Shown here in pieces: positions 32,989 through 63,614 of a stretch of DNA of 64,000 bases; position 1 is the stretch's first letter, and each line of letters opens with the position of its first letter. Made by a program: the position numbers and the translations under genes. Under the pieces are notes generated by a model. It was not told the origin of the DNA. It did no database searches and was given only the letters and a program-made list of their open reading frames with translations. This DNA is from Armatimonadota bacterium. GTDB taxonomy: Bacteria > Armatimonadota > Fimbriimonadia > Fimbriimonadales > Fimbriimonadaceae. The stretch lies in contig JANNQV010000018.1 in the NCBI GenBank assembly GCA_031400935.1, positions 1 to 64,000 on the forward strand. Direction: 5' to 3'.

Positions 32989-33046
32989 ACCTACGACACG
33001 AAGCTTTGATGATCGTGCCGTATGACAGGGTAGTCTGAACGCAACA

Positions 33047-34081: not shown

Positions 34082-34125
34082 TTGAGGCTCATAACACTAT
34101 CCCTCAGATAAAGTCGCAACGGTAA

Positions 34126-39557: not shown

Positions 39558-39677
39558 GTATTATTCCTTTGCTGGCAAAAGCGGTAAATGTGGTGCTACA
39601 GAGGTTCGTTAGCGCAAAACATTTCCTTGCCTCTTCAGCCTTTGATACAGTGTATAACTCCAGCAGTATTTCTTCCT

Positions 39678-39691
39678 ATGACAGCCGTCAT
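39678..39691. promoter_or_regulatory. Crp/Fnr-type operator ATGAC-agcc-GTCAT
   Basis: Perfect palindrome in a divergent intergenic region; a -10-like GAGAAT lies 23 nt after it. Confidence 0.75.
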
Positions 39692-39739
39692 AGTGCACGA
39701 GAATACTTTCGGCGAGAATGTAATTGGAGTCCATCCGAT

Positions 39740-43901: not shown

Positions 43902-43904
43902 GGC

Positions 43905-44468
43905 TTATACCTTTCGGCTCACAAAAATCTTGCCGTTTTCGATTTTGACGGGGTGCTCGACAAGTCCAGAAGGCGGCGGTCCAGAAACCACTTTGCCGAC
44001 TTCGTCAAAGACCCCTCCGTGGCACGGGCAGAAATATCGCTTCTGATCGTCTTGAAAATTGACTTTGCATCCCAGGTGGGTGCAAGCAGGATCAAAGCAC
44101 TTGACATCAGATTCAGTTCGGTGCAAAAAAACTGTGTATTTTCGGTCTACGGCTTGGTAGCCATCTACGATGTTCATCACATACGAAACTTCCCTCGTTT
44201 GGCCGAGTGCAAGGTCAGCGTCGTCCAAAATAGGCATCCATCGTTCGGTTAGCTTTGTTGAAATTGGAGCTGCCGCGAAGCGTACAACGGGAATTGCGAG
44301 AGCTAGTCCGACCGCGATGTTTATTCCAGTGACCAGCCATCGGAGAGCGGTTCTGCGGCTTACCGATTCGACATGCTCAGGCTCAAGATTGGTGCCGCAC
44401 GAACAAGCAGGAGGGCATCTCTTGCTTGGATCGGGTCCATCGGATTTAAATACATTCAGTTCTTTCAT
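43905..44468 (-). CDS. Rieske iron-sulfur subunit of the Rieske/cytochrome b complex
   Basis: SRRTAL followed by a TM segment; CTHLGC; CPCHGGVF; SGPPP. Confidence 0.92.
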   Translation of the reverse strand: MKELNVFKSDGPDPSKRCPPACSCGTNLEPEHVESVSRRTALRWLVTGINIAVGLALAIPVVRFAAAPISTKLTERWMPILDDADLALGQTREVSYVMNIVDGYQAVDRKYTVFLHRTESDVKCFDPACTHLGCKVNFQDDQKRYFCPCHGGVFDEVGKVVSGPPPSGLVEHPVKIENGKIFVSRKV

Positions 44469-44480
44469 AGCAGTGATCTG

Positions 44481-45611
44481 TTAGGGGTAATAGCGAATCG
44501 TGATTTCCTTTGCCGGTTCGTCGTAGACTCGAGCAACGACGTCCTCAGCGATTCGAAGCGACTTGTGATGGCGTCCTGGGCTTGGTTCTCGAAGGAATCC
44601 AATTTCAACTCCGGAAGCTGTTACCGCTTCGGTCACTTTCGTTAGAGACACCATGATCGGGACAATCCATGCGTGTTGGAACCGTGTGAACGGTGCCGAA
44701 ATCATGAGCGCACACACAAAAGCTAGGTGGTAGATGTAAATCGGCATTACCCAGCCAAATGCGGTTGTCCGATTGATTACGAGCGTGAGAATGCCGCTCA
44801 ATACGGTTTGGAAGAGTAGGAATACAAACAGATAATCGCGGCCAAGAGTTAGCCCGTTGTCAATGTACTCGTCGGTTTTGTACCGCTTCATGACGTAAGC
44901 GACGCCGATCAAAACCATGACTCCGGCAAAAATCGGAAGGATCTTCAGGGGGTTACTCAACGCCAAATCGGCTCGAGTCGGATTGAAAATCTGCATCAAA
45001 ATGTCAGCAGTAGCAAGGCCGATCATTCCATAGAGCATCAGACCGTGCATCGCCCATAGGTGCTTGCTCTTTCTCCAAAGGGATCCGACGAAGAGGCCGT
45101 CGAAAATGAGCGACTTCAAGGCAACACCGAGCGCTTTACCGTATCCAAACCTTCGTAGGGCTGGTTTCATATATTTGAATCCAGCCAGCTTCACCCAATA
45201 AGCGATTCCTCGAATCACGAAAATGAAACTGAACAAAGAAACTGCGAGGAAGATTTTGGCTACGTTTTTTGTAGTCAACATTGAGCCAACTTTAAAGGCA
45301 AGCGGGATCTGCTCTTCATTCCACGGCCTAGCTTTTACGTCATCGTAAATGGTCTTAGCATCCTCGTTTGACAGTTGTTCGACAGGCGTGCCCGGCATCA
45401 TGCCCTTTCCGTTTCGAACTGTGTTGAGGAACTCGATTTGTTCAAGTTTGGTCTGTGCTAGGGGAGGTCCTAAGCCGCCCATTGCAGTCATTCCATGGCA
45501 GCCCATGCATGACGAGCTTTCAAAGGCATCTTTCTTTTTGAGGTCAGTCTGGGAACCTGAAATGGTAACAATTAGAATCAGTAATCCGAGAATTGAAATC
45601 AGTTTTCTCAT
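44481..45611 (-). CDS. Fusion of a monoheme cytochrome c and a NarI-like membrane heme b domain
   Basis: Signal peptide; CMGCH with GP and a distal MP; then about 5 TM segments with WAMH and H-x17-H (YH...PFTRFQH). Confidence 0.8.
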   Translation of the reverse strand: MRKLISILGLLILIVTISGSQTDLKKKDAFESSSCMGCHGMTAMGGLGPPLAQTKLEQIEFLNTVRNGKGMMPGTPVEQLSNEDAKTIYDDVKARPWNEEQIPLAFKVGSMLTTKNVAKIFLAVSLFSFIFVIRGIAYWVKLAGFKYMKPALRRFGYGKALGVALKSLIFDGLFVGSLWRKSKHLWAMHGLMLYGMIGLATADILMQIFNPTRADLALSNPLKILPIFAGVMVLIGVAYVMKRYKTDEYIDNGLTLGRDYLFVFLLFQTVLSGILTLVINRTTAFGWVMPIYIYHLAFVCALMISAPFTRFQHAWIVPIMVSLTKVTEAVTASGVEIGFLREPSPGRHHKSLRIAEDVVARVYDEPAKEITIRYYP

Positions 45612-46300
45612 GGTGCAACCTCCTCAAAAACTTCGGGCTTTGCCGCTTGACCAAGAGTCGAGACGTCTTGCGATGCCATCGGTCCAAGATATCGTCCCGA
45701 TGGTTTTGTTCCTGCTTCTGGCAACAGGCAGAACGGATCACGATCCGTTTCATCCTGCTGCTCTTTGATGTACATTCTCAGTTTGCCTTTGGGGTCGTCT
45801 AGATCGCCAAAAATTCTTGCAGTTGTCGGACAAGCCACAACACACGCTGGGTCAAGTCCTTCATCTACCCGGTGAGCGCAATACGTGCATTTCCTCGCGA
45901 TTCCAGAGTTCAATCTTGGCTTGACATTGTCCCTTTCATAAGGCTCATCTTCGTTCAAATACCAAAGTTCGGATTCTTGAAGAATGATGTTTCCGTACGG
46001 GCATGCGGATACGCATGCGCCAGTCCCACGGCATCGGTCTTGGTCAATCAAAACGATCCCATCGTGCCTCTTTACGATTGCCTTGTTCGGGCAGGCCTTT
46101 AGGCAAGGAGGGTCCTCGCAGTGATTGCAAAGGACTGGGATGTAGAGCCGTTTTACATTTGGATAAGTGCCCGACTCTACATTGATCACTCGCGCAAAGA
46201 AGACATCCATGGGGGTGCCGTTTTCTTGTTTGCAAGCCACCGTGCATGCATCGCACCCAATGCATCGGGTGAGGTCAATGAGCATAGACATCTTAGGCAT
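45608..46300 (-). CDS. 4Fe-4S dicluster subunit (NrfC/DmsB/PsrB-like)
   Basis: CIGCDAC, CNHCEDPPC, CRGTGACVSACP (one Cys replaced by Thr) and KCTYC motifs. Confidence 0.92.
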   Translation of the reverse strand: MPKMSMLIDLTRCIGCDACTVACKQENGTPMDVFFARVINVESGTYPNVKRLYIPVLCNHCEDPPCLKACPNKAIVKRHDGIVLIDQDRCRGTGACVSACPYGNIILQESELWYLNEDEPYERDNVKPRLNSGIARKCTYCAHRVDEGLDPACVVACPTTARIFGDLDDPKGKLRMYIKEQQDETDRDPFCLLPEAGTKPSGRYLGPMASQDVSTLGQAAKPEVFEEVAP

Positions 46301-48738
46301 TACTTCACGCTCCTAATGTCGACACGAGTATCTTTCCAGTGCTGACCAGGTGCATAGACAGCAGGTAGATAGTAGTTTTCGTGAGTTGCTTTCACCTTTT
46401 GATGGGTGTGGACAGAATGGTACTTTCCGCCTCCCAAATACCGGTCCCACCAACCGTGGTCAACGCAAAGCACACCGGGTTTGATCGTTTCCGTCAGCAA
46501 TGCCCAGAGCTTGTAGGATCCGTTGTAATTGAAGATTTCGACCGGGTCGCCATCGCGAATCCCGCGTGCAGCGGCATCGCGCGGATTGATTTCGACGACG
46601 GCTCCCCGGTTCAGGTTGAGCAACAGTCGATTGTTGCTGTGAGTCGAGTGAACTCGCCACTTACTGTGGGGAGTAACGATGCTAAGTGGGAGTTTTTGAT
46701 CCTCGACTGGCAGGTGTGAAAACGCAGGTTTGTAGATTGGAATTGCCTCGCCGAATTGGCGAAACACATCTTCCTCTTTGTAAAATTCCATCCGTCCGGT
46801 CTTTAGGAACTCGCGCTGAGCGCCTTCGGGGAATGGATACGCTCGAGGAGGGAACAGCTTGTCTTCCAGAAATTGCTCATCACATCCGACTTCAGGATCG
46901 TGAACATTAAGTCGAACAGGGCCCTGCAGAAGCTTTTCGTAAGTTATTCCTGCGACTTCTTTGCCGCCGCTTGCAAGCATCATGTCGATGATTTCCGGCT
47001 CTTCAAAGTCCATTTCTTTGAAAAGAGTTGGGTCTACTCTGCGAACAATTTCTTTAACCATCCAGAGTTCAGTTCTGCTATCGTATTGTGGGGAAACGAC
47101 CTCCTGTTGGATTTGAAGGTATGGGTGGCACGATGTCCCAACCAACTCTTTCTTTTCCCAAAAAGTCGGGGCAGGAAGAACGACATCGCTGTAATCACAC
47201 GTCGGCGACATCGAAAAATCAATCGTCACGAAAAGATCAAGCTTGTCGATCGATTCCTTTAGTGGCGTCGAGAATTCAGTGACTAACGGGTTTCCGTGAG
47301 AAACAAACAGTGCTTTGAAACCGTTTTTTGGATACTTGATCTTCGGGTTAATCGTTTCCGTCGGCTGACCCATCACAAAGTAGTGCATTGGCACACCGTT
47401 CGGTCTCTTTCCATCTGGGAACCACCATTTGCTCACATCTAGCCTAAAATGGTGTTGGCCGGAGTAAATGGAAACGGATTCGCCTGGCTTTCCGTGTGCA
47501 CCCACCAATGCAGATAGAAGCAAAATTGAGCGAATAGTAAGGTCGCCGTGAAGTCTGTGATTGACGCCCATTCCAATGATGATCGAACTTGGCCGATTGA
47601 GGGCATATTCCTTTGCAATCTCACGTATGGTTTCGGCTGGTATGTCGCAAGTCTTCGCTACGATTTCGGGCTTGTATTCATCCCGCATGATCGTGTCTTC
47701 GAGCGTTTGGAAGACAGGCGTGACCTTTACTTGGTTTCCGCCAATGGTAACAGTTTGCGTTCCTCTAAAGGATGGCTTTAGACCTTCAGGAAGCTTCAGT
47801 GATTCGGTTGGCAGCTTAGCCAAGGAATCCGTTGTCTCATCCCAAACCATGAACTCCATATCGGTTCCCGATCCAACATCAGATGCCCGGAGACGCTGGC
47901 CGTTGTCTTCTCGAATGAGAGTGCAGACGTCCGTGTATTTTCTTAGGAATTCCCAATCAACCCAGCCGCCTTCTAGCACGGTGTAGCACATGGAAAGGGC
48001 TAAGAGTCCGTCTGTGCCTGGGTGGATCGGTGCCCAAAGGTCGGCACCCTTGGCAGTTTGGCTGCACCGTGGATCAATGACAATGATCTTGCAGTTGTTT
48101 CGCTGTTTGGCGACTGTAGTAAGAAATTTTGCGTCTGGAATTCGAGTTTGAAACACATTGCTTGACCAAAGAATGGCAGTTTTGGCGTGCCCCCAACTCT
48201 TGGTTTCGCATTCGACGCAGTCAATGCCCATGGTATGGGTAAAACCCATCGAAATGTCGCCATTGAAATCGTATGCTGTCGCAAAGCTCATCCCGAGAAG
48301 CGCTGCCATTCGTACTTGGGCGCCCTTTTGCACATATCCTGTTCCAACAACTTGGTTGAAAAGGAGCATACTTTCAGGGCCGTAGTTGTCCCGAATGTGA
48401 GTCATTTTGTCGGCGATGTAGTCAAGGGCTTCATCCCAGCTAACTTCTCGCCATTTTCCTTCGCCTCTCTCGCCAGCCCGAATGAGAGGCTTTTTGACTC
48501 GATCCGGCCCATAGATCAAGTGGGTCATCGCCATTCCGCGCAAGCAACCGCGAGGATTGTATTCGGTGCAAGGATAATCTGCAGCCGGCTTCAGGTCTAC
48601 AATAACGTCGTCAACAACCGTCGCCAACCAGCCGCATGCGCCCGTGCAATTTGGACTATCGGTGGTGCGCACTACGCGAGTTTCGCCAGGTGCCTTGGTC
48701 GCGCCTTGTCTGCCGGGAACCGAATATCGAGTTGCCAA
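46300..48738 (-). CDS. Mo-bisPGD oxidoreductase, type II (Asp-ligated; Nar/Pcr/Ser/Nxr-related), substrate unassigned
   Basis: DSPNCTGAC...NPRGCLRG; AYDFNGD; TRIPDA; TPHSKWRVHST; 812 aa; no twin-arginine signal; GAGGAG RBS with TTG start. Confidence 0.85.
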   Translation of the reverse strand: MATRYSVPGRQGATKAPGETRVVRTTDSPNCTGACGWLATVVDDVIVDLKPAADYPCTEYNPRGCLRGMAMTHLIYGPDRVKKPLIRAGERGEGKWREVSWDEALDYIADKMTHIRDNYGPESMLLFNQVVGTGYVQKGAQVRMAALLGMSFATAYDFNGDISMGFTHTMGIDCVECETKSWGHAKTAILWSSNVFQTRIPDAKFLTTVAKQRNNCKIIVIDPRCSQTAKGADLWAPIHPGTDGLLALSMCYTVLEGGWVDWEFLRKYTDVCTLIREDNGQRLRASDVGSGTDMEFMVWDETTDSLAKLPTESLKLPEGLKPSFRGTQTVTIGGNQVKVTPVFQTLEDTIMRDEYKPEIVAKTCDIPAETIREIAKEYALNRPSSIIIGMGVNHRLHGDLTIRSILLLSALVGAHGKPGESVSIYSGQHHFRLDVSKWWFPDGKRPNGVPMHYFVMGQPTETINPKIKYPKNGFKALFVSHGNPLVTEFSTPLKESIDKLDLFVTIDFSMSPTCDYSDVVLPAPTFWEKKELVGTSCHPYLQIQQEVVSPQYDSRTELWMVKEIVRRVDPTLFKEMDFEEPEIIDMMLASGGKEVAGITYEKLLQGPVRLNVHDPEVGCDEQFLEDKLFPPRAYPFPEGAQREFLKTGRMEFYKEEDVFRQFGEAIPIYKPAFSHLPVEDQKLPLSIVTPHSKWRVHSTHSNNRLLLNLNRGAVVEINPRDAAARGIRDGDPVEIFNYNGSYKLWALLTETIKPGVLCVDHGWWDRYLGGGKYHSVHTHQKVKATHENYYLPAVYAPGQHWKDTRVDIRSVK

Positions 48739-48806: not shown

Positions 48807-48820
48807 ATGACCGTCGTCAT
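48807..48820. promoter_or_regulatory. Crp/Fnr-type operator ATGAC-cgtc-GTCAT
   Basis: Perfect palindrome about 70 nt upstream of the type II molybdoenzyme operon. Confidence 0.75.
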
Positions 48821-48862: not shown

Positions 48863-49000
48863 TAGGACTTGCAGGTCAAATAGGACTTATTCGACAAATG
48901 TAACAGATGGCACCTATCTGTCTTACCCGTCCTATTTGACCAATAAGTCCTATTTTGGAAGGCAAACCCGAACCAAGCCGAACTAACCCGAACCTCGCCC
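48863..49000. repeat. Nested palindrome plus 10-mer tandem repeats
   Basis: GGTCAAATAGGAC pairs with GTCCTATTTGACC, and ATAGGACTTATT with AATAAGTCCTAT; CCGAAC recurs with period 10 at 48965-48995. Confidence 0.7.
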
Positions 49001-49704
49001 TAATTCCTCAAAACTAGCTCAAGCGCATTTGGGTCGGCAATGGTGATGTGCTGATGCTCGGTCGTCACCATGCTGATTTTGTTCCACTTTGATAACGTTC
49101 GAATCGTTGTCTCGGTAGTTGTTCCAGACATCTCACCGAGTTCTTGGCGTGTGAGGGGAATCGTCAATCGAATAGCGTTTCCATTTTTCTCGCCATAAGA
49201 TTCTGCAAGCAAAAACAAGATAGCGGCGATTCTTTCCTCGACTCTGCCAGTCGAGAGCCTCGCCATAAAGTCAAGCTTTGAGTGCATTTGTAGGGCGACT
49301 TTCTTGACAAGCCTTTGCTGAATCACCGTGCTTGCCTCATAAATCGGCGTAAAAACGCGCTTTGGAATCCTGAGATACTGCGTTTTTGTCAGTCCGTAGG
49401 CGCTTAGCGGGCAGCCATCGCCGCTTACAGTTCCAAGCAAGCCGAAAATCTGCCCCGGTCCCATGATTTCGAGGGTAACTTCTATTCCGCTCGAATTGCT
49501 GCGGACCATCTTTACAAAACCAGCCCCGACAAGTCCAAAAAAATCGGTCTGGCTTCCGTCAAACCAAATTAGCTCGCCGCGATCGCACTTTGAGAGGCGC
49601 GACTGTTCTGCCAATCTTTCAAAGTCGGCTTCCGAAATGCCTCCGAGAAGTGTATTTGAACGCAGAACTCTTCGAACCGAATTCTCTAAAGCTACGGACC
49701 GCAT
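49000..49704 (-). CDS. Crp/Fnr-family transcriptional regulator (DNR/HcpR-like, no N-terminal Cys cluster)
   Basis: cNMP-binding-type domain (GPGQIFG), VEERIA, and HTH LTRQELGEMSGTTTETTIRTL. Confidence 0.92.
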   Translation of the reverse strand: MRSVALENSVRRVLRSNTLLGGISEADFERLAEQSRLSKCDRGELIWFDGSQTDFFGLVGAGFVKMVRSNSSGIEVTLEIMGPGQIFGLLGTVSGDGCPLSAYGLTKTQYLRIPKRVFTPIYEASTVIQQRLVKKVALQMHSKLDFMARLSTGRVEERIAAILFLLAESYGEKNGNAIRLTIPLTRQELGEMSGTTTETTIRTLSKWNKISMVTTEHQHITIADPNALELVLRN

Positions 49705-49771: not shown

Positions 49772-50554
49772 CTATGCTGTCCCAGCAACAACTCCGCCAA
49801 CGTGCCCAGCCCACGAGAGAATAAACATTCCGGCTGCGGCAAGAATGTAGTAGATGATCCTCATTGTGACGTTCATCTTCTCGTGCCGATGGACACGCAT
49901 AAACACCAATGTCCACATTATCACCGTGGCAAGCAGAGTAAAAATCAAATGCTGCTGGACATTTCCTCGCAACGGGAACTTCATCATTACCATCGCACCC
50001 AATCCAGTGACAACCGCAGCCAAGGATGTGATAGAGGCAAGGACAATGTTGTACCAGCCTGCATGAAGCAGAGTTTTGTCTTTCCGTACCAACCCAAGAA
50101 AGTCTAAGAGCAATCCAGCGATGAACAAGGCAATTGGAAAGTGGACAATCGCCGGATGATGGGCTGACTTTGGAAGCATCGGGTTTTCCCTTTCTTCGGC
50201 TTCAACTGGTACAGAGGTTGTGGCCTTTGCACCACCAAGCTTAGGATCACCTGGAACTCCGCCATTTTTCCACTCGTCGCCATTCGAGACGCCGTCACCG
50301 TCTGAGTCCTCGGATTCAACTGCCAGAAAGAGTGCTGGACCCAGTTCCAGACCCTTTGTATTTATGGCGCTGCCATATTTGTTAAATTCAAAGTCATCGT
50401 TTGAAACATGGCAATTCGCACATTCCCGTTTTCCAGCATCCGACTCTGCCGAGAAATTGTATTGCTTTTTTAGTGCAACCAAATACTCCTCTGTTGCCGT
50501 CGAAGCCGGCATTAGAACTGCAAACAATAATGTGATTCCGATCCATCGGATCAT
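49772..50554 (-). CDS. Monoheme cytochrome c domain fused to a DUF2231-like four-TM domain
   Basis: Signal peptide; CANCH; DSDGDG; HPAIVHFPIAL, QQH and GHVGG motifs. Confidence 0.82.
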   Translation of the reverse strand: MIRWIGITLLFAVLMPASTATEEYLVALKKQYNFSAESDAGKRECANCHVSNDDFEFNKYGSAINTKGLELGPALFLAVESEDSDGDGVSNGDEWKNGGVPGDPKLGGAKATTSVPVEAEERENPMLPKSAHHPAIVHFPIALFIAGLLLDFLGLVRKDKTLLHAGWYNIVLASITSLAAVVTGLGAMVMMKFPLRGNVQQHLIFTLLATVIMWTLVFMRVHRHEKMNVTMRIIYYILAAAGMFILSWAGHVGGVVAGTA

Positions 50555-50580
50555 TGAATTCCTCCTATTCCAAGCGCAAA

Positions 50581-50898
50581 TTACGGCAAAACGTCCTTTT
50601 TGATGCTAGCTCCGTTCTTCACACCATCTCCATTTGAGTCAAGATTCTCGACAGCTGCGAGAATTGCAGGAGTCAACTTCTTCGTGTTAGCCGCTTTCAT
50701 TGCGGCAGTCAAATCCTTGCCATAGCTGTTTAGCGGACCACCCTTTGCAGACATGTGGCAAAGTTTGCAACCTGCTGCTGCAATCGCCGAGCCTTCCTTG
50801 ACTTCGTACTTTTTGTCAAATACTTTGTCGTATGAGGTCAATGCCATGGCTGCTGCAGCGATGCCAGTTAACAATAGTAGTGTTGCTATTCTTTTCAT
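50581..50898 (-). CDS. Small secreted monoheme cytochrome c
   Basis: Signal peptide; CKLCH; NSYG; DSNGDG. Confidence 0.82.
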   Translation of the reverse strand: MKRIATLLLLTGIAAAAMALTSYDKVFDKKYEVKEGSAIAAAGCKLCHMSAKGGPLNSYGKDLTAAMKAANTKKLTPAILAAVENLDSNGDGVKNGASIKKDVLP

Positions 50899-50908
50899 GA
50901 TTTTTCTC

Positions 50909-53299
50909 CTAAATTGGTATGAATGGTCGTTTCAAAACTTCAAGTTCGCCGGATTCGACTTTCTTGGCGCGAACTGCGACTTTGCGAGCGACTCGGCGAT
51001 AGTAGGCAGACATGAATCCACCCATCGTCATAATTGCTGTACCTAGCCACACAAGACTAGTCATCGGCTTCACATAAATCTCTAACGGGTACATCGGCTT
51101 GGCAAGCTGAACTTGCAAAGTAACCGCTTTTGTTGCTGCATCCATGCCAGTCATTTGAACCTCAAACGAGTCGCCCAGTTTGCCTGCGTGCTGTTTCGTG
51201 CCAGACATTCCTAGTTCCATTTTGGGAGTTGTTGTAAAGGCTCCCTGTGCTGATTTGACGTTTAACTCGGCACCGAATTTCGTCCCCGCCATACCTGAAT
51301 CGCCGTCACGAACCATCTTTTTGTAGGTCATCGTATAGCCGGAAAACTCGCGCGATTCGCCCGGCTTCAAAGTGAAAGGCTCGGTTGCATCGCGCTGGGG
51401 CTCATGCATCGTAAAATAGAGGTCGTAAAACGCTGTTCGCTGAACGTGCGGCCACGCCATCGGGTCTTTGTGTCCGTCATCCTCGATGTAATAGAATCCA
51501 GGCGAAGCCACAAACTCGACTGGTTTTGAACCGTTCGCCGAAATGACTTCAAATTGCATCTTGTTTTCTCTATCGGCAAAGTTTGAAGTCATTCCCTTGT
51601 ACCGAATGGCGTAATCCATGAGAGTTCCAGGGTGGCCGTCCATGACGAACGTTTGAATCTTGCGCTCGAATCCGCGGGAAACAATGAGTCCAGCCATAAG
51701 CATCGCGATTCCGCTATGGGCGATGAACGAAGCCCAAGCCAGCTTGGAAGCTTTGCGAAGCTCGTACATTCGCCACGCTGTACCGACCAAAATCAAAACG
51801 CTGAGTCCAGCTAAGAACACAACCCATGCAAGATTCGAAATTTTCAATCCAAACGGGAAACTCGAAGTACCCGTCAGATCAGCTAGCTTGCCTAGAGGGC
51901 TGAAAACGACAGCTAAGAGAATGAATCCGCAGGCTCCGACCGCAATGCAGAACAATGAATAGGCTCGCTTTAGAATGTCCTTCAAGGATGCGCCGTTCCA
52001 CGCCACAAACGGAGCAATCGCCATGAGGATCATTATCGGCACGAATATCCAAGGAAGCACTTTGTGATAGGTAGCTTCTTCGACGACCTTTGGGGGCCTG
52101 CCCTGTAATGCCATAAAGAAGGGAATGCTCATCCCGATCATCGTCGCCAAACCCATGGTGCCCAAAAGCATCGCGCCAATGCGATAGATTCCTTCCCTGT
52201 GAAAGCCTTTGATTTCAGCGACAGGCGGCTCAACAATCTTTCGAGATTGGATGGCGCGAAAGCTCCAGAGTCCGAAAAACGATACGCTGGAAATCGCCAT
52301 CACGCCCATGAGCAAACGCAGTGCAGAGCGATCCATTTCGGCAAAGCTATGAACGCTTGCTTCGGCGAGAAATCCGCTTCGGGTCAAAAAAGTCCCATAT
52401 ACGAAGGTCAGAAACGGCAGCCCTCCCATGAGAAGATTTGCCATCTTCCACTTGTTCTTTACAACTTGGACAATGACCCCATGAATGAAGGCAGCGCAAA
52501 GACACCAAGGAACAAAGCTCACGTTCTCGACGGGATCCCACATCCAAAATCCGCCCCAGCCGAGAGTCTCGTAAGCCCAGAATCCGCCCATGCAAAGGCC
52601 GACTCCGACGAGAGTTGTCGAGAGGATCGCCCATGGTCGAACGATTCCAATCCATGCGTCGTGTTTATTGGTGATTAGAGCCGCCAAGGCAAGTGCAAAT
52701 AGAACGGTAAGCGAACCAAAGCCCATGAAGATAACTGGCGGATGAATCGTAACCCAGTAGTTTTGAAGAGATGGAGCCAGTCCTCTGCCATCGGCAGGAA
52801 CAACGGCTGCCCCTTCTGACAGGATGAGCTTGAAAGGAGACTCGTAGGCTAAGATCGCTACAATGGCACCTAGGAATCCCGAATAGATAATGCTGTACCA
52901 GCGGCGATATTCCCCAGTTCTGCCTACCGCAAGTAAGCCAAAAACTGCTGCAGCGACCGCCCAGAGCAGGAAGCTGCCTGGCTGGCCGGACCAGACTGCT
53001 GCAAGCTTGTAAATCAGCGGGTTCCTCAGATCTGAATGTGCCCAAATATATTCAAACTCAAACCGATTGTTGAGGAAGAGCGTTGCCAAACTCACAAAAA
53101 TCGCAATCGTCGACAGGCAACCTGCGGCAAAGGCGAATTTGCCGACTTTTTCGAACCGCGCATCTGACTTGCCGAAGAGCCATGCAAGTGCAGCGATCCC
53201 GAAAAACGCGACGGCGACGAGGACGCTTAAGCGTCCTGCGTCGCCGACGGTAAGAGACCATGCGGGCGGAGTAGCAACAGTTAGTGTATTGGCGTCCAT
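50909..53299 (-). CDS. ccmF: CcmF/NrfE-type heme lyase (cytochrome c maturation)
   Basis: WSGQPGS, IHPP, WAYETLGWGGFWMWDPVEN, GTFLTRSG and SVHSF motifs. Confidence 0.92.
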   Translation of the reverse strand: MDANTLTVATPPAWSLTVGDAGRLSVLVAVAFFGIAALAWLFGKSDARFEKVGKFAFAAGCLSTIAIFVSLATLFLNNRFEFEYIWAHSDLRNPLIYKLAAVWSGQPGSFLLWAVAAAVFGLLAVGRTGEYRRWYSIIYSGFLGAIVAILAYESPFKLILSEGAAVVPADGRGLAPSLQNYWVTIHPPVIFMGFGSLTVLFALALAALITNKHDAWIGIVRPWAILSTTLVGVGLCMGGFWAYETLGWGGFWMWDPVENVSFVPWCLCAAFIHGVIVQVVKNKWKMANLLMGGLPFLTFVYGTFLTRSGFLAEASVHSFAEMDRSALRLLMGVMAISSVSFFGLWSFRAIQSRKIVEPPVAEIKGFHREGIYRIGAMLLGTMGLATMIGMSIPFFMALQGRPPKVVEEATYHKVLPWIFVPIMILMAIAPFVAWNGASLKDILKRAYSLFCIAVGACGFILLAVVFSPLGKLADLTGTSSFPFGLKISNLAWVVFLAGLSVLILVGTAWRMYELRKASKLAWASFIAHSGIAMLMAGLIVSRGFERKIQTFVMDGHPGTLMDYAIRYKGMTSNFADRENKMQFEVISANGSKPVEFVASPGFYYIEDDGHKDPMAWPHVQRTAFYDLYFTMHEPQRDATEPFTLKPGESREFSGYTMTYKKMVRDGDSGMAGTKFGAELNVKSAQGAFTTTPKMELGMSGTKQHAGKLGDSFEVQMTGMDAATKAVTLQVQLAKPMYPLEIYVKPMTSLVWLGTAIMTMGGFMSAYYRRVARKVAVRAKKVESGELEVLKRPFIPI

Positions 53300-53382
53300 G
53301 GTCTTTTCAGCTTGAGAATGAAGATCGTTTACAAGAGATTTGGTGGGTGCCGGTCAGGGGAAATGACCGGCACCCTCAGCGG

Positions 53383-54828
53383 TTAGTGATCATTCTCCGT
53401 CATATCCGCAACAGATGCTTTCTTCGCATCTCTCTCCAGTATCTGAAGCTTTGCAGCGACAGAGATGTTTGTTGGTCGAGCCGGAGGAATCGTAAGATCG
53501 TCCATGTTTTGGTTGGCAATCATGATTAGGTGCTTTGCATACGGAGCGTTATGGGCTCCATAGTCACCAGACCGGATGACGAAGTAGTAGTTGTGCCGTG
53601 AGCGTTTGATCTGAATCGGCACGCCAGACTGCGTTGGCGGCGTACCACCTTCAGCTGTGATGTTTGACGTGTATTCCCAATACAGGTCATTGCCATACGT
53701 AGTTGTTGCCCAAGCTTCCATGCGCAGTTTCAACGCATATAGCTGGTTTATGATCGTGTCCTTTTCGTTCTGAATACGAACAGCGGCATCTTGGGCCGTG
53801 TGGCAAGGCGAACAGCTCTTATCATAGCTAACCGTGAACGTATGCCGCGAATCGGGCATGTGGCACTTGCTGCATTGCCCCGGAATTGTTGCATGGGTCG
53901 TGTTGCGTTCCACCGGCCCAGATCCTTCAACACCTCCAAAACCCATCAGCATGTTGTATTGATTGCTGTCATGCATGCTCGGGCGGCTTGTACCTGAGTT
54001 CAGCTTTGCATCAGCAGGATCAGTACCCCTTCCGTTGTGGCATTGTGCGCAACTGTGATCGAATGTAGTGAAAGAAGCTGCTGTGCTGCTTGGGCCAACA
54101 GGTGTAATGTCCGTGTTGAACGTCTTTCGACGCAATTGCACTTCCTTTCCATCATCAGTCAGGTTTCCAGTTTTGCCGTGCGGATCGTGGCAGCTCACAC
54201 AGTCAGCGACATGTGGAACTGGACCCATGGTTGCTCGGCAATACTCTTGTATTTCGGCATCCGTCATAGCCCCCAAATCTGCCCCATTGTTGATCGCAGC
54301 ACGAACAACGCCGCTATGGCAGGCTATGCATCGGGACGTCCTGCCGTATTGGCCGGGATTCAAAATCGCATTTGCCACGGGGCTTGCAACGAGCTTGCTA
54401 TGTTGCGAGACGTTGAATTGGTCATGCGCGGTCCCATGGCACTGGCCGCAGATCACTGGAGAAGCCGTAAGTGGGAAAGTGAGGATTTTGCCTACGGTTT
54501 CCGGATCAGCGGCATGCTCGCTTCCAGGCCCATGGCATCGCTCGCAACCGACACCTTTGTCGAAGTGAACCGTGTCTCTCCAATGCTCATATATTGTTTC
54601 TCCATCGGTTGCTCCACCATGGCAAACGGCAGTAGCACACGATTCGCTACCGATATAGGTTGCATCCCTTTGTTCCGGTGAAAGAAGTGCTAGGAACGCC
54701 GCAGTAGGTGCAGGAAGCCCTCCAGGATTCCCCGTCGGACCACCTTCGCCGCCACAGCTTTGCAACGCCAGCAAGGCCGCTGCAAAAGGGATGGCTGCGA
54801 ACGCTGTTAAAAACCATTTATATTTCAT
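53383..54828 (-). CDS. Octaheme cytochrome c lipoprotein
   Basis: Lipobox LQSC; CATAVCH plus seven CxxCH motifs (CERCH, CGQCH, CIACH, CVSCH, CAQCH, CSKCH, CSPCH); helical C-terminus with GAHNAPY. Confidence 0.88.
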   Translation of the reverse strand: MKYKWFLTAFAAIPFAAALLALQSCGGEGGPTGNPGGLPAPTAAFLALLSPEQRDATYIGSESCATAVCHGGATDGETIYEHWRDTVHFDKGVGCERCHGPGSEHAADPETVGKILTFPLTASPVICGQCHGTAHDQFNVSQHSKLVASPVANAILNPGQYGRTSRCIACHSGVVRAAINNGADLGAMTDAEIQEYCRATMGPVPHVADCVSCHDPHGKTGNLTDDGKEVQLRRKTFNTDITPVGPSSTAASFTTFDHSCAQCHNGRGTDPADAKLNSGTSRPSMHDSNQYNMLMGFGGVEGSGPVERNTTHATIPGQCSKCHMPDSRHTFTVSYDKSCSPCHTAQDAAVRIQNEKDTIINQLYALKLRMEAWATTTYGNDLYWEYTSNITAEGGTPPTQSGVPIQIKRSRHNYYFVIRSGDYGAHNAPYAKHLIMIANQNMDDLTIPPARPTNISVAAKLQILERDAKKASVADMTENDH

Positions 54829-54877
54829 TGCTTTTCTCCGCAGATTTGTCGCTTTATCATCAAATTCATTTTTCTTT

Positions 54878-56533
54878 TCAAAACTTCGTTGCAAAACTAA
54901 CTGAAACCACCGTTGCGCGATAGCCCATTTGGCTTACGAGCCGATCCGTGTAGCTCCAAGGAGCAACAGTTACTTCAAACCGCCTGTCCTCTTTCAGCTG
55001 CTTTAGATAGTGCAGCGTCAATTGGGTGCTTCGGATGTTGCCACCATCCAACAGGAGAGGGTTTTCATTCCTTGCGAAGAAATGAGACACTCCTAGAGTC
55101 AGGCTCGATGTTGGCCCCAGCGTCCAAGTTGCCCCACCAGCAAGCGAGATGCCGGAAGGAAAGAATTGGTCAAGTCGAATTCCTGTTTCTTCGAATCCGT
55201 GGCTGACCGAATAGGTTTCTGCAATCATCTCCAAATATGCAGAAGTTGCCTCGTTGGCCAGCCAATTGCCGCCCAGAGTTAACGTATGGCCATAAACATT
55301 GACTGCCCTCGGTCCATTCTGATCGTAGCTAAAATCGTAAACTCCATAGCCGCTGAAATTTTCATTGCCGCCGTCCAACTTAAATTGGCCACGGATCCTT
55401 TCATCGAAGATCAGTTGCCTCTCGTCCCCGCCGATGGGCCGAGGAGGGTTGTTCGCGTGATCCCAGCTTCCCTTCATGGCGTATCGAAGATCGCCTGGGA
55501 GTTTGCTCGACCACTTGGCTTCTATTCGATCGAAGGACGGCACGTCAACGAATTCGAAATCGTCGCGAAACCGTTCTGATTCTTTATGGCGAATCCCGAA
55601 CTGGAATGTGCCGTTAGGCTGTCGGTTTCGGAAACTGACGCCCGCATCCATTCGCTTGCGAACGAAATTGTTCTCAGCGTTCGGAAGTTCGAAACTCTCG
55701 TTTCTTGCATAAAAGCTGACGGTGGTGTCATCGGCTATTTCCATTAGTCCCTCGAGACCCCATCGGGTCGCTTGGCTGTCGAAGAAGAAGTTCTGCTCGA
55801 TGTTCGTTCGGGAGTACGAGCCGCTCAAACTGAAGTTCGGGCTCACTTGAACGCCGTAAGACGCATTCAGGCTTCGCCTCGTCGAATTCGGATTCTCACC
55901 TGTTCGATCTAAATAGCGATAATTCGAGTAGGTTAACGCTGCATCGCCGCCAAACAATGTTCCCGAAATTCCGGCAAGTGTTTGTCGAGTTCGATCCAGA
56001 ATCTCTTCTTTGGGAGGCTCGTAGTATCGGTTTTGGCGGCGTTCGTCAACTTGAACAAACGCAGAAAGCGAGGGCGTTACCGCATAAGTCAGACTTCCTT
56101 GCAATGCTCGGTTTCGGCTCTCTTCTATCGGAATTGGGGTTGGGTCGTAAGAGCGATTTTCGATCCCTTGCAACCGAGCGAAAATCCGCCCGCCAAACAC
56201 TAGCTCGGCTTCACCTGCAATGTCTCCATCTGCCACTCCTCGAACGCCAAATCTGAATGAGCTTCCACGTTCGTTTGAGGGAGAAACCATCCCGAAATCG
56301 CGAAGCACGAAACCCATTGGAACCGTTGCATATTGGTTTAACCGATGGCGATTACCAGATAATCCGCTCCAATCCGCAAAGCCTGCGTCAATCCACCATC
56401 GCTTCGCAGGCTTAACTACTTCGTCCTCAGGCACTGGAACAGCGGGGGGAGTTTCTTGCGCCGCAGCCACGACCGCAAACGCCGTCACGGCGAGGATCAT
56501 CGTGGCTTTTCGGTTACGGCTGGCAAACATCAT
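54878..56533 (-). CDS. MtrB/PioB-like outer-membrane beta-barrel
   Basis: Signal peptide, amphipathic strands and C-terminal Phe; directly downstream of the decaheme gene; AAGGAG RBS. Confidence 0.75.
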   Translation of the reverse strand: MMFASRNRKATMILAVTAFAVVAAAQETPPAVPVPEDEVVKPAKRWWIDAGFADWSGLSGNRHRLNQYATVPMGFVLRDFGMVSPSNERGSSFRFGVRGVADGDIAGEAELVFGGRIFARLQGIENRSYDPTPIPIEESRNRALQGSLTYAVTPSLSAFVQVDERRQNRYYEPPKEEILDRTRQTLAGISGTLFGGDAALTYSNYRYLDRTGENPNSTRRSLNASYGVQVSPNFSLSGSYSRTNIEQNFFFDSQATRWGLEGLMEIADDTTVSFYARNESFELPNAENNFVRKRMDAGVSFRNRQPNGTFQFGIRHKESERFRDDFEFVDVPSFDRIEAKWSSKLPGDLRYAMKGSWDHANNPPRPIGGDERQLIFDERIRGQFKLDGGNENFSGYGVYDFSYDQNGPRAVNVYGHTLTLGGNWLANEATSAYLEMIAETYSVSHGFEETGIRLDQFFPSGISLAGGATWTLGPTSSLTLGVSHFFARNENPLLLDGGNIRSTQLTLHYLKQLKEDRRFEVTVAPWSYTDRLVSQMGYRATVVSVSFATKF

Positions 56534-56540
56534 AAACTCC

Positions 56541-57518
56541 TTAGGGTTGCAAGAAATGAGGGCTCGAGTTGCTACCGTGCGATGCAACATGGCACCCGGC
56601 AGTCCAGCAGGTTCGGCCAGGATAGTGCGATCCCAACTTTTCGGTATGGCATTGGGCGCAGAGACCGCGAGAAAAAGATTTCAGCATTTTGGGATTGCCG
56701 GAGCCGTGAGGCTTGTGGCATTCCATGCATCCTTCCGCACTATGTCCCGCTACCGGATCGTGCTCAAAAGCAAAAGGCCCTTCAAATTGACTGTGGCAAG
56801 TAACGCAGTTATCCTTTGTGTGCGCGACTTTGCCTTTTGCCGATTTCGAGGGATGAACGGTGTGGCAGTCACTACAAACCATTCCACCCTCTGGGACGGG
56901 GTGATGAGACGGTAATCTGAATTTGGCGACTTCGCTTGCATGGCATTGGCCGCAAAGTGTGATTTCGTCGGCCATCAATAGTGCTTTCGCCTTAATTTTT
57001 GCGACGTGCACCGCTTCTTTTGGATTTTGAGGCGGCGGCTTTCCAGATCGTGTAACCCAATTGGGTTCGCTGTCAGGGTGAATCTGATGGCACGAAACGC
57101 ATGAGAGGTCGGCTTGGCTGTGGGAGGAAAGTTTCCAATGACGCTCGCTCAGCGTGGATTCGTGGCATCGGAGACAAGCTGCGGAGGACTCCTTTGGCTT
57201 CATAGTTCGGAACGCAATGACTTCTGGGTTCTCGTCAGCTTGGTGAATGAATCCGGCGCCGTGGCACCCTTCGCAACCTTGCTTTTCAAGCGGCGCGTTC
57301 GGGTTCTTCATATAGGCTTCGTGGCCGGATCCCAGAAATGCCGCAACTTTCTTTGCGTGGCAGTCATTGCAACCCGAATCGCCCATAAAGTCATCGGCCT
57401 TAGCGCGGGCAAAAATCTTTTGGGCTTGGCTAGGAGCAGTCCTTTGCTGATTCGCCGCAACGCCAGCGACAAGGAAAGTGGCTATTCCTGCGGCTAAGAT
57501 GATTGCTTCGATTCGCAC
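56541..57518 (-). CDS. MtrA/MtoA/DmsE-family decaheme cytochrome c
   Basis: Nine CxxCH motifs plus CWTAGCH; FRLPSHHPVPEG and GPFAFEHDPV motifs; signal peptide. Confidence 0.9.
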   Translation of the reverse strand: MRIEAIILAAGIATFLVAGVAANQQRTAPSQAQKIFARAKADDFMGDSGCNDCHAKKVAAFLGSGHEAYMKNPNAPLEKQGCEGCHGAGFIHQADENPEVIAFRTMKPKESSAACLRCHESTLSERHWKLSSHSQADLSCVSCHQIHPDSEPNWVTRSGKPPPQNPKEAVHVAKIKAKALLMADEITLCGQCHASEVAKFRLPSHHPVPEGGMVCSDCHTVHPSKSAKGKVAHTKDNCVTCHSQFEGPFAFEHDPVAGHSAEGCMECHKPHGSGNPKMLKSFSRGLCAQCHTEKLGSHYPGRTCWTAGCHVASHGSNSSPHFLQP

Positions 57519-57795: not shown

Positions 57796-60700
57796 TCAGT
57801 TGGTTTCGCCGACATCCCGCGAAGCTTCTTCGTCAGGCTCGTTAACCGGCCAAGACCATTCCCTCCCGAGAAACGTCCTGTTGATCCAGCAAATGAAGTC
57901 ATCCACGTACGTGTGCATGATCGGGATGTCGAAGAGGCTGAGGATCGTTCCCATTATCAGGCCGCCAACTACCGCCATAGCTAGCGGTTGGTAAGCATCT
58001 AGCCCTGTCTTTGGCGCAAAGGCAACAGGCATCATGACAAGGAGCGTTATGCCGACGGTCATGAGAATAGGGCGTAGCCGGTCAGGGCATGCCCTTATAA
58101 TTGCCTCGTCTCTTGGAATCCCCTTGTCTCGATACCGCATGATGAGGTCAATCATCAGAACGGCTGTCGTGATGTCCATGCCCGTAAGAACAATGATTCC
58201 GAGTATCGAAACGGTCGAAAAAGCTTGGTGAGCCAGCCAAAGTGCGATGAAAACGCCTGCAAGTTCCAATGGAAGCGACGCAAGCATTTGCAGAGGCTGC
58301 AAAAAGCCTCGGAACTGGATGACTAGGACCAAATACATGAGCACCAAAGCTAGCCCAAGCCCGCTGACGAGGCGCCGAAAGCTGTCCATCATCTGAGTCA
58401 TGTCGCCGCGCATTTCCATACCGTAACCGGGCGGAAAGTTGACTGGTTTGATCCCGAGTTTCTCGTTGCCACCGTATGCATTGGCGACGAGATTCATAAC
58501 CACATCCATGCTTGGCAAGTCTCCAATTCGGTAATAGCCGGATACCCCCATCACCCGCTTCAGCCCGTCATGCTCGATTGCGGTCGGTGCGACATGGCGC
58601 TGGATTTCGGCTACAGATTTGATTGGAATCTGCTCGCCAGTTCCAGTCGTGATGTATAGATTTTCAAGATCGGTTGGGGTCTCACGATCCTCTTTGTCGT
58701 ATCGCACAAGAATCGTGTTCTGGCGGAGATTCGGTAAGCGGTAGAACTCATTAGTCAGTCCACCGCGAAGTGCATAGTAAGCTTGTTGCGAAATGGATTC
58801 TGGGGAAAGCCCAACTTCTTGCGCTCTTTGAGGATCAACTTTGATCTGATAATCCGGCAAGCCCATTGACCATGTTCGCGACGACTGATACATCTCTGGC
58901 ATCTTGTGTGCAACAGCCTCGACTTCTCGCCCAAGGCGATCAAGTTCGAAGAGGTCTGGGCCGTAGATGTTCACATGGATCGGCGCAGCGGCAGTCGCCA
59001 TGACATCCGATCCCATTTCCTTAATCTGGATTCGCCGAAGCCCGGGAATCGTTTCCAAAGCTTCTTTGTGGATTGCATCCATTATCTGAAATATCGTTTT
59101 GCCGCGCGAATCCTTATCACTGAACGTCAACATCATTGCCGCGGCATTCACTTGTGGCATTTGGTAGCCCGTGTAAAACGGAGTCCACGTCTCAAACATG
59201 GATTCAGCACCGATTTCAATGCTCGCTTTTTCAAGCTCGGGGTGTTTTGCGATGATCGTCTCAAGCTTTTTGACTGCGTTTTCCGTACCCTTGTAGGAAG
59301 TTCCAGGCTCCATTTCCATGAACCCCACGGCTTGTCCAGTATCGGCAAGAGGCATCATTTCTGAACCAATAAAGTAGTAGAAAGAGAATCCGATTATCAG
59401 AACAGCAAGCACGCGCGTGAAGTTAAGAAACCGATGCTTGAGAGTCCAGGCAATAGCCCGTGAATACCAGCCCTCCAATCTGTCAAGCCCTTGTTGGAAT
59501 GGGTCTAGCAAGACATAGAGCCATTTGAGAAGTGGCTTCTTTCGGTCTTCGTCCCGTGCTTCTTCGTGGCGAAGCAGTTTGGCGCAAAGCAAAGCGTTCA
59601 ATGTGAACGAAACAAGCATCGAGGCAAGTAGCCCAAAAATGAGCGGCCAAACGAGCTCGACAAACATGAGCCCCACAATGCCGCCAGAAAATAGAAGAGG
59701 CAACAACGCAAGCACGATCATCAGGGTGGAAGCGATGACTGCCACTCGAACTTCAGCGATTCCATCAATTGTAGCTGTCTTTGGGTCTTTGCCCATCCGC
59801 AGGTGCCGCTCGACAGCGTGGATGTCAATGATGCTGTCGTCCACCAACCTGCCGATGGAAAGCAAAAGCCCGATCAAAGTCCCGCTATTGAAAGTCATGC
59901 CGAAGGGCAGCATCATCAGAATCGCAAGTGCCAAGGAAGTTGGCAAGGTGACCATCGCAATGACGGTGCCACGCCATTCCCCCAAGAAAAGGAGAACGGC
60001 AATCGCTGTAAGAAGAATCGCAAGCCCAAGCTCATGCCAGACGTTGTTAAAGAGAATTTCGACAAAACTTGCGTTGTCGTAAGCGACTTCGATTTTTAAT
60101 CCCGGATTCTCGCTTTCAATTTGCTCAACGACCGTCATGATTGCTGGAACGACGGTAGCCGAACTTGCCCCTGGGTTTTGGATGATGGAGACTTCAATTG
60201 CTTCAGACACCACCGCTGCTTTATTTTTGTTTTGGCTGAGGAAGCGGTAACCGCTACGCTTTTCCCAATGCGAATCCTCAACCCGAGCCACATCCCTTAC
60301 GTAAATGACCCGAGGAGATCGCTTAGCACCACCATTTGAATTTCCTTGAACAACCGAACTAGATGGAGCCGAACCGCCGCCCATTCCCATTGCTCCGCCT
60401 CCTGAGCTAGGTTGAATAGGAGTGACATTGCTTGTATCTCCGAATCCAGTAACCGGATAACTGAGCACATCTTCAGCAGATGTGGCACGTGAATCCACTC
60501 GAACAATTCCTTCCGTCGAACCTTGCGTAAGGGTTCCAGAAGATCGGGTCACGTTAAAGCGGTCAATGGCGTCTCGCACGTTCAAAATGGAAAGTCCGTA
60601 CCCTGCCAGCTTTTCCCGGTCCACAACTACTTGCATTTGCCTGCGGTATCCGCCGAAAGGCACTACGGAATACACATTCGTCACTGCTTTCAGGCGGCGA

Positions 60701-61254
60701 ACCATTTCGTTGTCTGCAAATTCGCGAACCTTTACGGGGTCCCATCCCTGCGCTTTATCGCCTGTCAAGGCAAGCGAGAGAATTGGCAAGTTCAATGGGT
60801 CAATCGGAACGACGAAAGATGGTTTCAGGTTTGCGCCAGTTGCAGGCAGATTCGATTGCGTGACGTTCATTAGCGTCTGCACATCAACAAGCGCCCGCTC
60901 CATGTTAGTCCCATAAGGAAACTCGAGAGTGACAATTGAAAACCCGTCTTGCGAAGTCGAGCGGATATAGCGCACGCCCTTGAGGTTTACAAGTTGTTCT
61001 TCAATCGGCTTGGAAATGTACAGTTCCATTTCCTGCGGAGACAAACCTGGCATCATCGTCACGACACCGATCATTGGGCTTTCAACATAGGGCGCGAATC
61101 GCCTCGGAATTACCCCTGTGACCGCCATCCAGGCAAGCGCAAGCACTCCAACATAGAAAGCGATGATCGCGTACGGATGCTCGATAGACCACCGGTGGAT
61201 CATGTGCAGCGGGTTATGCCGCTTCGTTTCGAACTTTAGGGGTTCTCGCTTCAA
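57796..61254 (-). CDS. RND efflux permease (AcrB/CusA-like, Met-rich)
   Basis: PGLSPQEME, GRLVDDS and RLRPILMT motifs; about 12 TM segments. The start is uncertain (TTG 61254 overlaps the upstream stop; ATG 61203 is an alternative). Confidence 0.92.
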   Translation of the reverse strand: MKREPLKFETKRHNPLHMIHRWSIEHPYAIIAFYVGVLALAWMAVTGVIPRRFAPYVESPMIGVVTMMPGLSPQEMELYISKPIEEQLVNLKGVRYIRSTSQDGFSIVTLEFPYGTNMERALVDVQTLMNVTQSNLPATGANLKPSFVVPIDPLNLPILSLALTGDKAQGWDPVKVREFADNEMVRRLKAVTNVYSVVPFGGYRRQMQVVVDREKLAGYGLSILNVRDAIDRFNVTRSSGTLTQGSTEGIVRVDSRATSAEDVLSYPVTGFGDTSNVTPIQPSSGGGAMGMGGGSAPSSSVVQGNSNGGAKRSPRVIYVRDVARVEDSHWEKRSGYRFLSQNKNKAAVVSEAIEVSIIQNPGASSATVVPAIMTVVEQIESENPGLKIEVAYDNASFVEILFNNVWHELGLAILLTAIAVLLFLGEWRGTVIAMVTLPTSLALAILMMLPFGMTFNSGTLIGLLLSIGRLVDDSIIDIHAVERHLRMGKDPKTATIDGIAEVRVAVIASTLMIVLALLPLLFSGGIVGLMFVELVWPLIFGLLASMLVSFTLNALLCAKLLRHEEARDEDRKKPLLKWLYVLLDPFQQGLDRLEGWYSRAIAWTLKHRFLNFTRVLAVLIIGFSFYYFIGSEMMPLADTGQAVGFMEMEPGTSYKGTENAVKKLETIIAKHPELEKASIEIGAESMFETWTPFYTGYQMPQVNAAAMMLTFSDKDSRGKTIFQIMDAIHKEALETIPGLRRIQIKEMGSDVMATAAAPIHVNIYGPDLFELDRLGREVEAVAHKMPEMYQSSRTWSMGLPDYQIKVDPQRAQEVGLSPESISQQAYYALRGGLTNEFYRLPNLRQNTILVRYDKEDRETPTDLENLYITTGTGEQIPIKSVAEIQRHVAPTAIEHDGLKRVMGVSGYYRIGDLPSMDVVMNLVANAYGGNEKLGIKPVNFPPGYGMEMRGDMTQMMDSFRRLVSGLGLALVLMYLVLVIQFRGFLQPLQMLASLPLELAGVFIALWLAHQAFSTVSILGIIVLTGMDITTAVLMIDLIMRYRDKGIPRDEAIIRACPDRLRPILMTVGITLLVMMPVAFAPKTGLDAYQPLAMAVVGGLIMGTILSLFDIPIMHTYVDDFICWINRTFLGREWSWPVNEPDEEASRDVGETN

Positions 61255-63611: not shown

Positions 63612-63614
63612 GAG

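Follow-up and report, generated by a model that had tools for sequence, protein, structure and literature searches.

Locus and genome

The window analysed here, a stretch of 64,000 nucleotides of contig JANNQV010000018.1 (C18), belongs to a 2.97-Mb Armatimonadota genome (GCA_031400935.1) of 95.6% completeness, and its positions 49772-57518 hold a run of six genes that probably encode a porin-cytochrome conduit for extracellular electron transfer (EET). A preliminary description of this DNA had proposed a co-oriented run of decaheme, beta-barrel, octaheme lipoprotein, CcmF, monoheme and monoheme-DUF2231 genes, and all six open reading frames (ORFs) were recovered in place, all on the minus strand and separated by gaps of 10, 49, 83, 10 and 26 bp:

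56541-57518, minus strand: MtrA/DmsE-like periplasmic decaheme cytochrome (TIGR03508, 179.7 bits; 6r2q_A, E 1.5e-27)
54878-56530, minus strand: 26-strand, short-looped outer-membrane beta-barrel, structural homologue of MtrB (predicted model and match to 6r2q_B)
53383-54828, minus strand: octaheme lipoprotein with OcwA/OmhA (NrfA-like) fold, candidate surface terminal cytochrome (lipobox, fold, profile)
50909-53299, minus strand: CcmF/NrfE-family heme lyase (PF01578, PF16327; TIGR00353 below cut-off)
50581-50898, minus strand: small secreted monoheme c protein, candidate periplasmic shuttle (one CxxCH; weak NF041762 match)
49772-50554, minus strand: monoheme c domain with membrane DUF2231, candidate inner-membrane quinol link (PF09990, E 1.4e-17)

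Two observations go beyond the preliminary description, namely that the octaheme is related to OcwA and OmhA and that the monoheme-DUF2231 gene alternates in related loci with a CbcL/MtrH-like gene. L and G numbers below designate loci and genomes of the comparison.

A divergent MtrAB pair

The decaheme possesses nine CxxCH motifs and one CX4CH motif and the octaheme seven and one, respectively, so that each heme count depends on one non-canonical motif. The decaheme matches MtrA of the solved Mtr complex, and as all 53 aligned relatives keep ten histidines that lie outside its motifs, its hemes are probably all bis-His ligated.

Counted from its second ATG, the barrel consists of 550 amino acids with a C-terminal Phe. 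It has no match in Pfam or NCBIfam, and PF11854 (MtrB_PioB) is matched by none of 55 aligned members of its family and nowhere in the genome. The predicted structure (predicted local distance difference test, pLDDT, 88.5) has 26 long strands, which is also the strand count of MtrB, and its best structural match is the MtrB chain 6r2q_B (Foldseek E 2.4e-10, template modelling score, TM, 0.70; Z 26.0 with a root-mean-square deviation of 2.8 A over 489 aligned residues). The next row stands at Z 16.7, and identification as a TonB-dependent receptor or LptD, at Z of 16.7 or less, was rejected. The preliminary description had named a barrel too small for the decaheme as a finding that would speak against the conduit; with 26 strands that superpose on MtrB over such a length, this objection fails.

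As a word-based protein search with the barrel returned four proteins, the family was recovered via gene neighbourhoods and a profile search, which yielded 220 relatives, 150 of them listed, with 37 distant ones scanned. Ten of these 37 match PF11854 at E<=0.01, one of them above cut-off, and three are fusions of the same decaheme and barrel types. The MtrB match, the presence of PF11854 in distant relatives and the decaheme-barrel fusions therefore identify decaheme and barrel as a divergent MtrAB pair. The single-chain fusions are P0227, P0248 and P0246 (988-1054 amino acids, P0246 being partial). Two decaheme-barrel pairs each occur in the loci L042 (3633-9926) and L089.

An OcwA/OmhA-related octaheme lipoprotein

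The lipobox of the octaheme reads LQS-C25, and Cys25 is kept in 120 of 121 aligned homologues. The closest folds to its model (pLDDT 89.4) are OcwA (6i5b, Z 16.7) and OmhA (6qvm, Z 16.4), with 26-28% identity over about 300 residues and with an NrfA-like heme core and a C-terminal three-helix bundle in common; the profile matches are to the same two proteins (6qvm, E 1.8e-12; 6i5b, E 6.8e-11), and octaheme nitrite reductases (ONR) and NrfA rank behind them with Z of about 11-13.1. Membership in the MtrC/OmcA lipoprotein family was rejected on the grounds of eight hemes, the lack of a TIGR03507 match and the best folds.

OcwA and OmhA have been described as cell-surface EET cytochromes (10.1101/641308; PMC7829351). 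The octaheme may likewise be located at the cell surface; its lipobox is conserved, and the genome encodes the GspD of a type II secretion system, over cut-off, as well as an Omp85. Prediction of a complex of barrel and octaheme scored 0.00 and thus gave no answer, and is used neither for nor against binding.

In the alignment, heme 1 of the octaheme falls on heme 1 of OcwA and heme 2 on heme 3, so that the first open (five-coordinate) heme site of OcwA seems to be deleted. The second open site of OcwA possesses a His-His pocket (H380/H381; 10.1101/641308; PMC9250108), which in the octaheme reads Met-His: position 285 is Met in 40, Phe in 9 and Tyr in 3 of 59 rows and His286 is present in 59 of 59, a mapping made by alignment without coordinates, as a search with the C-terminal fragment did not return OcwA. 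Because eight extra histidines are invariant or nearly so, either all eight hemes would be bis-His ligated or heme 4 would stay open. The ORF does not contain a CxxCK catalytic motif.

Among related loci, L033, L035, L038-L041, L043 and L045 carry a second, different octaheme lipoprotein of about 370 amino acids with a weak ExtM-like match between barrel and octaheme, and L022 (8288-9850) has two octaheme genes in tandem.

Distribution of the conserved triad

The octaheme was found in 64 of the 401 Armatimonadota genomes searched (16%). A barrel is present in 59 of these 64 and lies beside the octaheme in 56, as judged by comparing coordinates by eye. BLAST places decaheme and barrel upstream of it in 52 of the 54 loci that are informative, and a barrel is also found in L047 with a hidden Markov model (HMM). 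The proposed porin-cytochrome conduit of Mtr/Mto type, in which an octaheme lipoprotein stands where MtrC would be expected, is thus supported by the MtrA and MtrB matches and by the conserved triad. Close octaheme relatives are labelled Fimbriimonadaceae, Chthonomonas or Armatimonadota, and a metagenome scan gave, among the matches listed, distant cytochromes only. One locus, L046, is titled Methanoregulaceae archaeon; as its octaheme groups tightly with Fimbriimonadaceae, the contig is probably mislabelled or misbinned.

CcmF follows the triad in 33 of 61 related loci and the small monoheme protein is present in 26 of them, many loci being cut short. The CcmF of the conduit is one of two copies in the genome, the second being encoded on contig C46 with 43% identity, and is probably dedicated to this operon. 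The small monoheme protein combines its CxxCH with a DxDxDG acidic repeat and falls in an Atlas cluster (score 0.98) of 144 hypothetical proteins, mostly from Armatimonadota.

DUF2231 and CbcL-like proteins in the same slot

That CymA is missing was already part of the preliminary description and is borne out at the level of the 95.6%-complete genome, where no match to NapC/CymA (PF03264) was found. In related loci, the gene right after the small monoheme encodes either a monoheme-DUF2231 protein (11 loci, plus one inverted) or a heptaheme-FdnI-like cytochrome b (8 loci, plus two nearby), the latter matching the architecture of CbcL/MtrH/MtoC, in which a multiheme is fused to a cytochrome b (PMC6295460); the two never occur together in that slot. 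Across the 64 octaheme genomes at the thresholds used, a CbcL-like gene is present in 47 and a member of the close DUF2231 clade (E<1e-90) in 9, with no genome having both and 8 having neither, and the 11 octaheme genomes of the window's family divide into 7 CbcL-like and 4 monoheme-DUF2231 with none having both or neither. On a quick tree of 57 octahemes, with 22 rows carrying a slot label, the slot states require six changes, at least three of which are forced by starred branches, and the swap therefore looks repeated; in shuffles the states are not clustered on the tree (95 and 84 of 500 as low).

This mutual exclusion suggests that DUF2231 may stand in for the CbcL-like protein as the quinol link of the inner membrane. 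His133, His138, His202 and His251 of DUF2231 are invariant in 10 of 10 rows and, in the predicted topology, would face the periplasm. The domain might ligate heme b and perform quinol chemistry.

ImcH-like matches occur in 9 of the 64 octaheme genomes and adjoin the conduit in G335 and G174. Beside the MtrAB-like triad, L085 (from G335) and L023 have ImcH-like and CbcL-like genes together. ImcH has been reported from Fe(III) reducers only, and mtrAB/mtoAB are stated not to have been found next to imcH (PMC6295460), which G335 appears to contradict. In L047 (12253-19278) a CbcL-like gene, a 28-heme NapC-anchored protein and more multihemes come after the conduit.

A probable conduit for electron export

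The best reading of the locus, with a probability of about 0.65, is a complete, self-contained porin-cytochrome EET conduit that most likely exports respiratory electrons when oxygen is short. What the data show are the anatomy of the genes, the folds of their products, a conserved triad, relatives in which decaheme and barrel are fused, and the alternation of DUF2231 with CbcL. Quinol would be oxidized by the monoheme-DUF2231 protein, with a His-ligated heme b in the membrane domain and the heme c outside, and electrons would pass to the small monoheme protein, from there to the MtrA-like decaheme inside the 26-strand barrel and on to the surface-anchored OcwA-like octaheme, which could deliver them to Fe(III), humic quinones, electrodes or partner cells. 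Maturation of the 20 c-hemes would fall to the extra CcmF. The surface location of the octaheme, its contact with barrel and decaheme, the outward direction and the acceptor are predicted parts of this scheme.

Several observations weigh against it. The decaheme score of 179.7 bits is under the curated TIGR03508 cut-off of 192.2, and barrel and MtrB share only 10% identity. With respect to direction, CbcL/MtrH/MtoC homologues are found in reducers and oxidizers alike (PMC6295460) and so do not fix it. With respect to the quinol link, DUF2231 shows no homology to the cytochrome b domain of CbcL (hhalign probability 4.9%) and has no solved structural relative, and the genome of the window has no ImcH-like match. 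The profile for the close clade was built from conduit-adjacent copies and related genomes are not independent; 8 of 64 octaheme genomes are left with neither gene, two genomes including G375 have a close-clade member and no octaheme match, and in G138 the close DUF2231 gene is about 1 Mb distant from the triad. Distant monoheme-DUF2231 genes are common in genomes without the conduit, and four octaheme genomes with such a distant gene have a CbcL-like gene as well. Compared with structures, the DUF2231 profile weakly retrieves calmodulin-like EF-hands only, via the acidic repeat, and longer DUF2231 fusions were sought without a match, a result of little weight.

That DUF2231 represents an unrecognized minimal family of heme-b quinol:cytochrome c oxidoreductases which, fused to one c-heme, has repeatedly swapped with CbcL/MtrH as the inner-membrane entry point of the conduit, is a tentative proposal with odds clearly below even. 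Its counterpart, and the rival explanation that survives best although still rather unlikely, keeps the conduit as described but makes the monoheme-DUF2231 protein an accessory, for example in copper or heme handling, with alternative complex III or a Rieske/cytochrome b pair feeding the conduit via the small monoheme. The missing homology to CbcL and the widespread distant paralogues suit an accessory, the invariant histidines could bind copper, and the genome encodes both alternative complex III, on contig C4, and, within the window, a Rieske/cytochrome b pair. An accessory leaves unexplained, however, the shared slot and the exclusion with the CbcL-like gene, with 56 octaheme genomes having either one. 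The only other multihemes of respiratory type recognized in the genome are a pentaheme in the alternative complex III cluster and a tetraheme-domain protein on contig C54.

Improbable, but worth consideration, is an arrangement comparable to DmsEF-DmsAB, in which the conduit would serve a catalytic lipoprotein, with the octaheme as an outer-surface or periplasmic reductase of a soluble substrate, for instance nitrite or hydroxylamine, and heme 4 with His286 as the open site. The fold is NrfA-like with ONR and NrfA next after OcwA/OmhA, the eight hemes match positions kept in ONR and hydroxylamine oxidoreductase (HAO), OcwA reduces nitrite in vitro (10.1101/641308), and the genome combines a Nar-like enzyme and NarK with no NrfA, NirK, NirS or NirA/B match over cut-off, which leaves room for the octaheme to reduce nitrite on the side. 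On the other hand, CxxCK is missing, Met, Phe or Tyr takes the place of the first histidine of the OcwA pocket, eight near-invariant extra histidines for eight hemes permit an all-bis-His wire, and the conserved MtrAB pair would be superfluous for an enzyme of the periplasm. A separate NrfA/ONR-family gene is moreover present in 35 of the 64 octaheme genomes, on which basis the octaheme as a phylum-wide stand-in for NrfA was rejected.

Neighbouring nitrate genes and possible electron uptake

The genes directly downstream of the conduit are, as the preliminary description had it, a regulator, 67 bp on, and a molybdoenzyme operon 261 bp further:

49000-49704, minus strand: Crp/Fnr-family regulator (PF13545, PF00027)
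42717-48738, minus strand: separate operon for a type II dimethyl sulfoxide (DMSO) reductase-type molybdoenzyme (alpha subunit), its Fe-S (beta) subunit, a cytochrome c/NarI-like protein, a Rieske protein and cytochrome b, in this gene order
48807-48820, no strand: ATGAC-N4-GTCAT palindrome upstream of the molybdoenzyme operon

The molybdoenzyme is of DMSO-reductase type II, scores below all curated cut-offs and is closest to 5e7o/4ydd; no twin-arginine signal is visible at its N-terminus, the first cluster motif reads Asp-Ser-Pro-Asn-Cys, and nitrate is a plausible substrate. It occurs in 20 of the 401 genomes, with copies 72-86% identical in the 19 others.

Exact ATGAC-N4-GTCAT boxes are located in the window at 48807, 39678 and 31431 and number 8 in the genome versus about 2.8 expected. 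The regulator that recognizes them may be the Crp/Fnr protein itself. Among relatives the box stands before 8 of 11 molybdoenzyme genes but before only 3 of 49 decaheme genes, and none lies upstream of the decaheme in the window, which bears out the earlier statement that the conduit has no ATGAC box. A Crp/Fnr homologue is found in one of 63 related loci (L025), and the regulator is not a conserved part of the conduit.

Of 40 related loci that extend at least 7 kb downstream, none contains the molybdoenzyme, so that it is adjacent to the conduit only in this genome; in G335 it is about 40 kb away. Fifty of the 64 octaheme genomes lack this molybdoenzyme, and 47 lack any DMSO-reductase type II molybdoenzyme at E<=1e-60. 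The preliminary description had tied the conduit to the nitrate genes, a connection that these counts and the unshared box do not uphold: a conserved operon linkage was rejected, the box being mostly not shared and adjacency 0/40, and little connects the conduit to nitrate respiration. The co-occurrence that it had suggested as a check holds at the genome level within the window's family (8 of 11 octaheme genomes with the molybdoenzyme versus about 2 expected), in keeping with a low-oxygen lifestyle common to both, and does not extend to operon adjacency in relatives. Overall, 14 of the 20 molybdoenzyme genomes have the octaheme versus 3.2 expected, and kinship together with lifestyle may account for this.

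These data also bear on the same conduit working naturally in electron uptake, in the manner of Mto/Pio, from Fe(II), reduced humics or partner cells for reduction of nitrate or oxygen. Besides the adjacency in this genome and the co-occurrence, it can draw on L009, where narK genes flank the conduit on both sides, on an Armatimonadota decaheme annotated as MtoA in one metagenome-assembled genome (MAG; PMC9671151), and on MtrAB homologues and decaheme trees, which do not sort by electron direction (PMC8805035). With the molybdoenzyme absent from all 40 informative loci and a DMSO-reductase type II molybdoenzyme from most octaheme genomes, its upstream box missing from the conduit, a surface partner that resembles terminal reductases and ImcH-like genes beside some relatives, uptake is the least probable of the rival explanations and decidedly unlikely.

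Elsewhere in the window, 29060-41080 encodes a NasC-like nitrate reductase with Fe-S and Rieske partners, two NarK, a NarI-like membrane protein and an alginate-export-type porin, and ATGAC-N4-GTCAT palindromes at 29141, 31431, 39678 and 48807 precede porin/narK genes and the molybdoenzyme and are conserved in relatives. Upstream of the conduit, 57796-63932 (minus strand) holds heavy-metal-type RND efflux genes with YtkA and cupredoxin domains, a similar set being upstream in one related locus (L015) only. Promoter and terminator scans stayed at chance level.

Comparison with known systems

With MtrCAB of Shewanella (6R2Q) the conduit shares an MtrA-like decaheme, an MtrB-fold barrel and a multiheme lipoprotein in one operon. 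The lipoprotein is, however, an octaheme of OcwA fold where MtrC is a decaheme, the barrel has about 140 fewer aligned-chain residues and no PF11854 match, CymA is absent and the operon includes the extra CcmF and two monoheme proteins. MtoAB(CD) and PioABC resemble it in the MtrAB-type core and the periplasmic monoheme, and relatives of the window carry a CbcL/MtrH/MtoC-like inner-membrane protein; but MtoAB and PioABC come without MtrC (PMC8805035), while here the core has a multiheme lipoprotein as its conserved partner and DUF2231 occupies the slot of MtoC.

OcwA of Thermincola potens (6I5B) and OmhA of Carboxydothermus ferrireducens (6QVM), surface terminal reductases of Gram-positive iron reducers, have the fold with the C-terminal three-helix bundle in common with the octaheme, but possess nine or eleven hemes, two of the sites being five-coordinate, versus eight motifs, one heme less, and a His-His pocket (H380/H381) that the octaheme does not keep. 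From NrfA and ONR it differs in lacking the CxxCK catalytic heme. As in Geobacter-type systems with CbcL/MtrH/MtoC and ImcH, relatives have heptaheme-cytochrome b and NapC-like multihemes beside the triad, whereas the genome of the window has neither and fills the slot with the non-homologous monoheme-DUF2231 protein, which has one c-heme where CbcL/MtrH/MtoC combine a HydC/FdnI-like cytochrome b with 3-23.

The closest precedent is given by the EET1-EET4 clusters from peat (bioRxiv 10.64898/2026.05.27.727921), sequence-divergent porin-multiheme clusters with OcwA-like and MtrA-like cytochromes, which stem from Acidobacteriota and Verrucomicrobiota with Armatimonadota unmentioned in the main text; as the comparison is by main text, the architectural overlap could be larger. 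Distant nine-heme relatives of the octaheme lie near multihemes and probable barrels in L120, L127, L130 and L132.

No description of this Armatimonadota operon was found in the literature searched, most subscription journals being outside the search. Iron-reduction genes have been noted in a Fimbriimonadales MAG (PMC13055281), mtrCAB is reported from three phyla in a main text that does not mention Armatimonadota (PMC8805035), and two further papers (PMC12133095, PMC6137239) add nothing specific.

Significance

Cumulatively, the conduit is a real, conserved porin-cytochrome system that would work in the manner of Mtr, yet stands outside MtrCAB, MtoAB and OcwA proper. If the reading as an export conduit is true, an EET conduit would be present in 64 of the 401 sampled Armatimonadota genomes and be recognized only in part by standard annotation, because the porin has no family match and the lipoprotein is called a generic cytochrome, and a diderm MtrAB core would be joined to a terminal-cytochrome fold known from Gram-positive iron reducers. 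The most testable lead is the DUF2231 swap, which would provide a testable function for a domain that came up in a single paper of the literature searched and, if DUF2231 is indeed the link, a fourth kind of EET quinol link besides CymA, CbcL and ImcH. Many Armatimonadota, including lineages from wastewater and anammox reactors, would then be electroactive in a way missed by current HMMs, and the findings suggest that these little-studied bacteria are able to respire on extracellular material.

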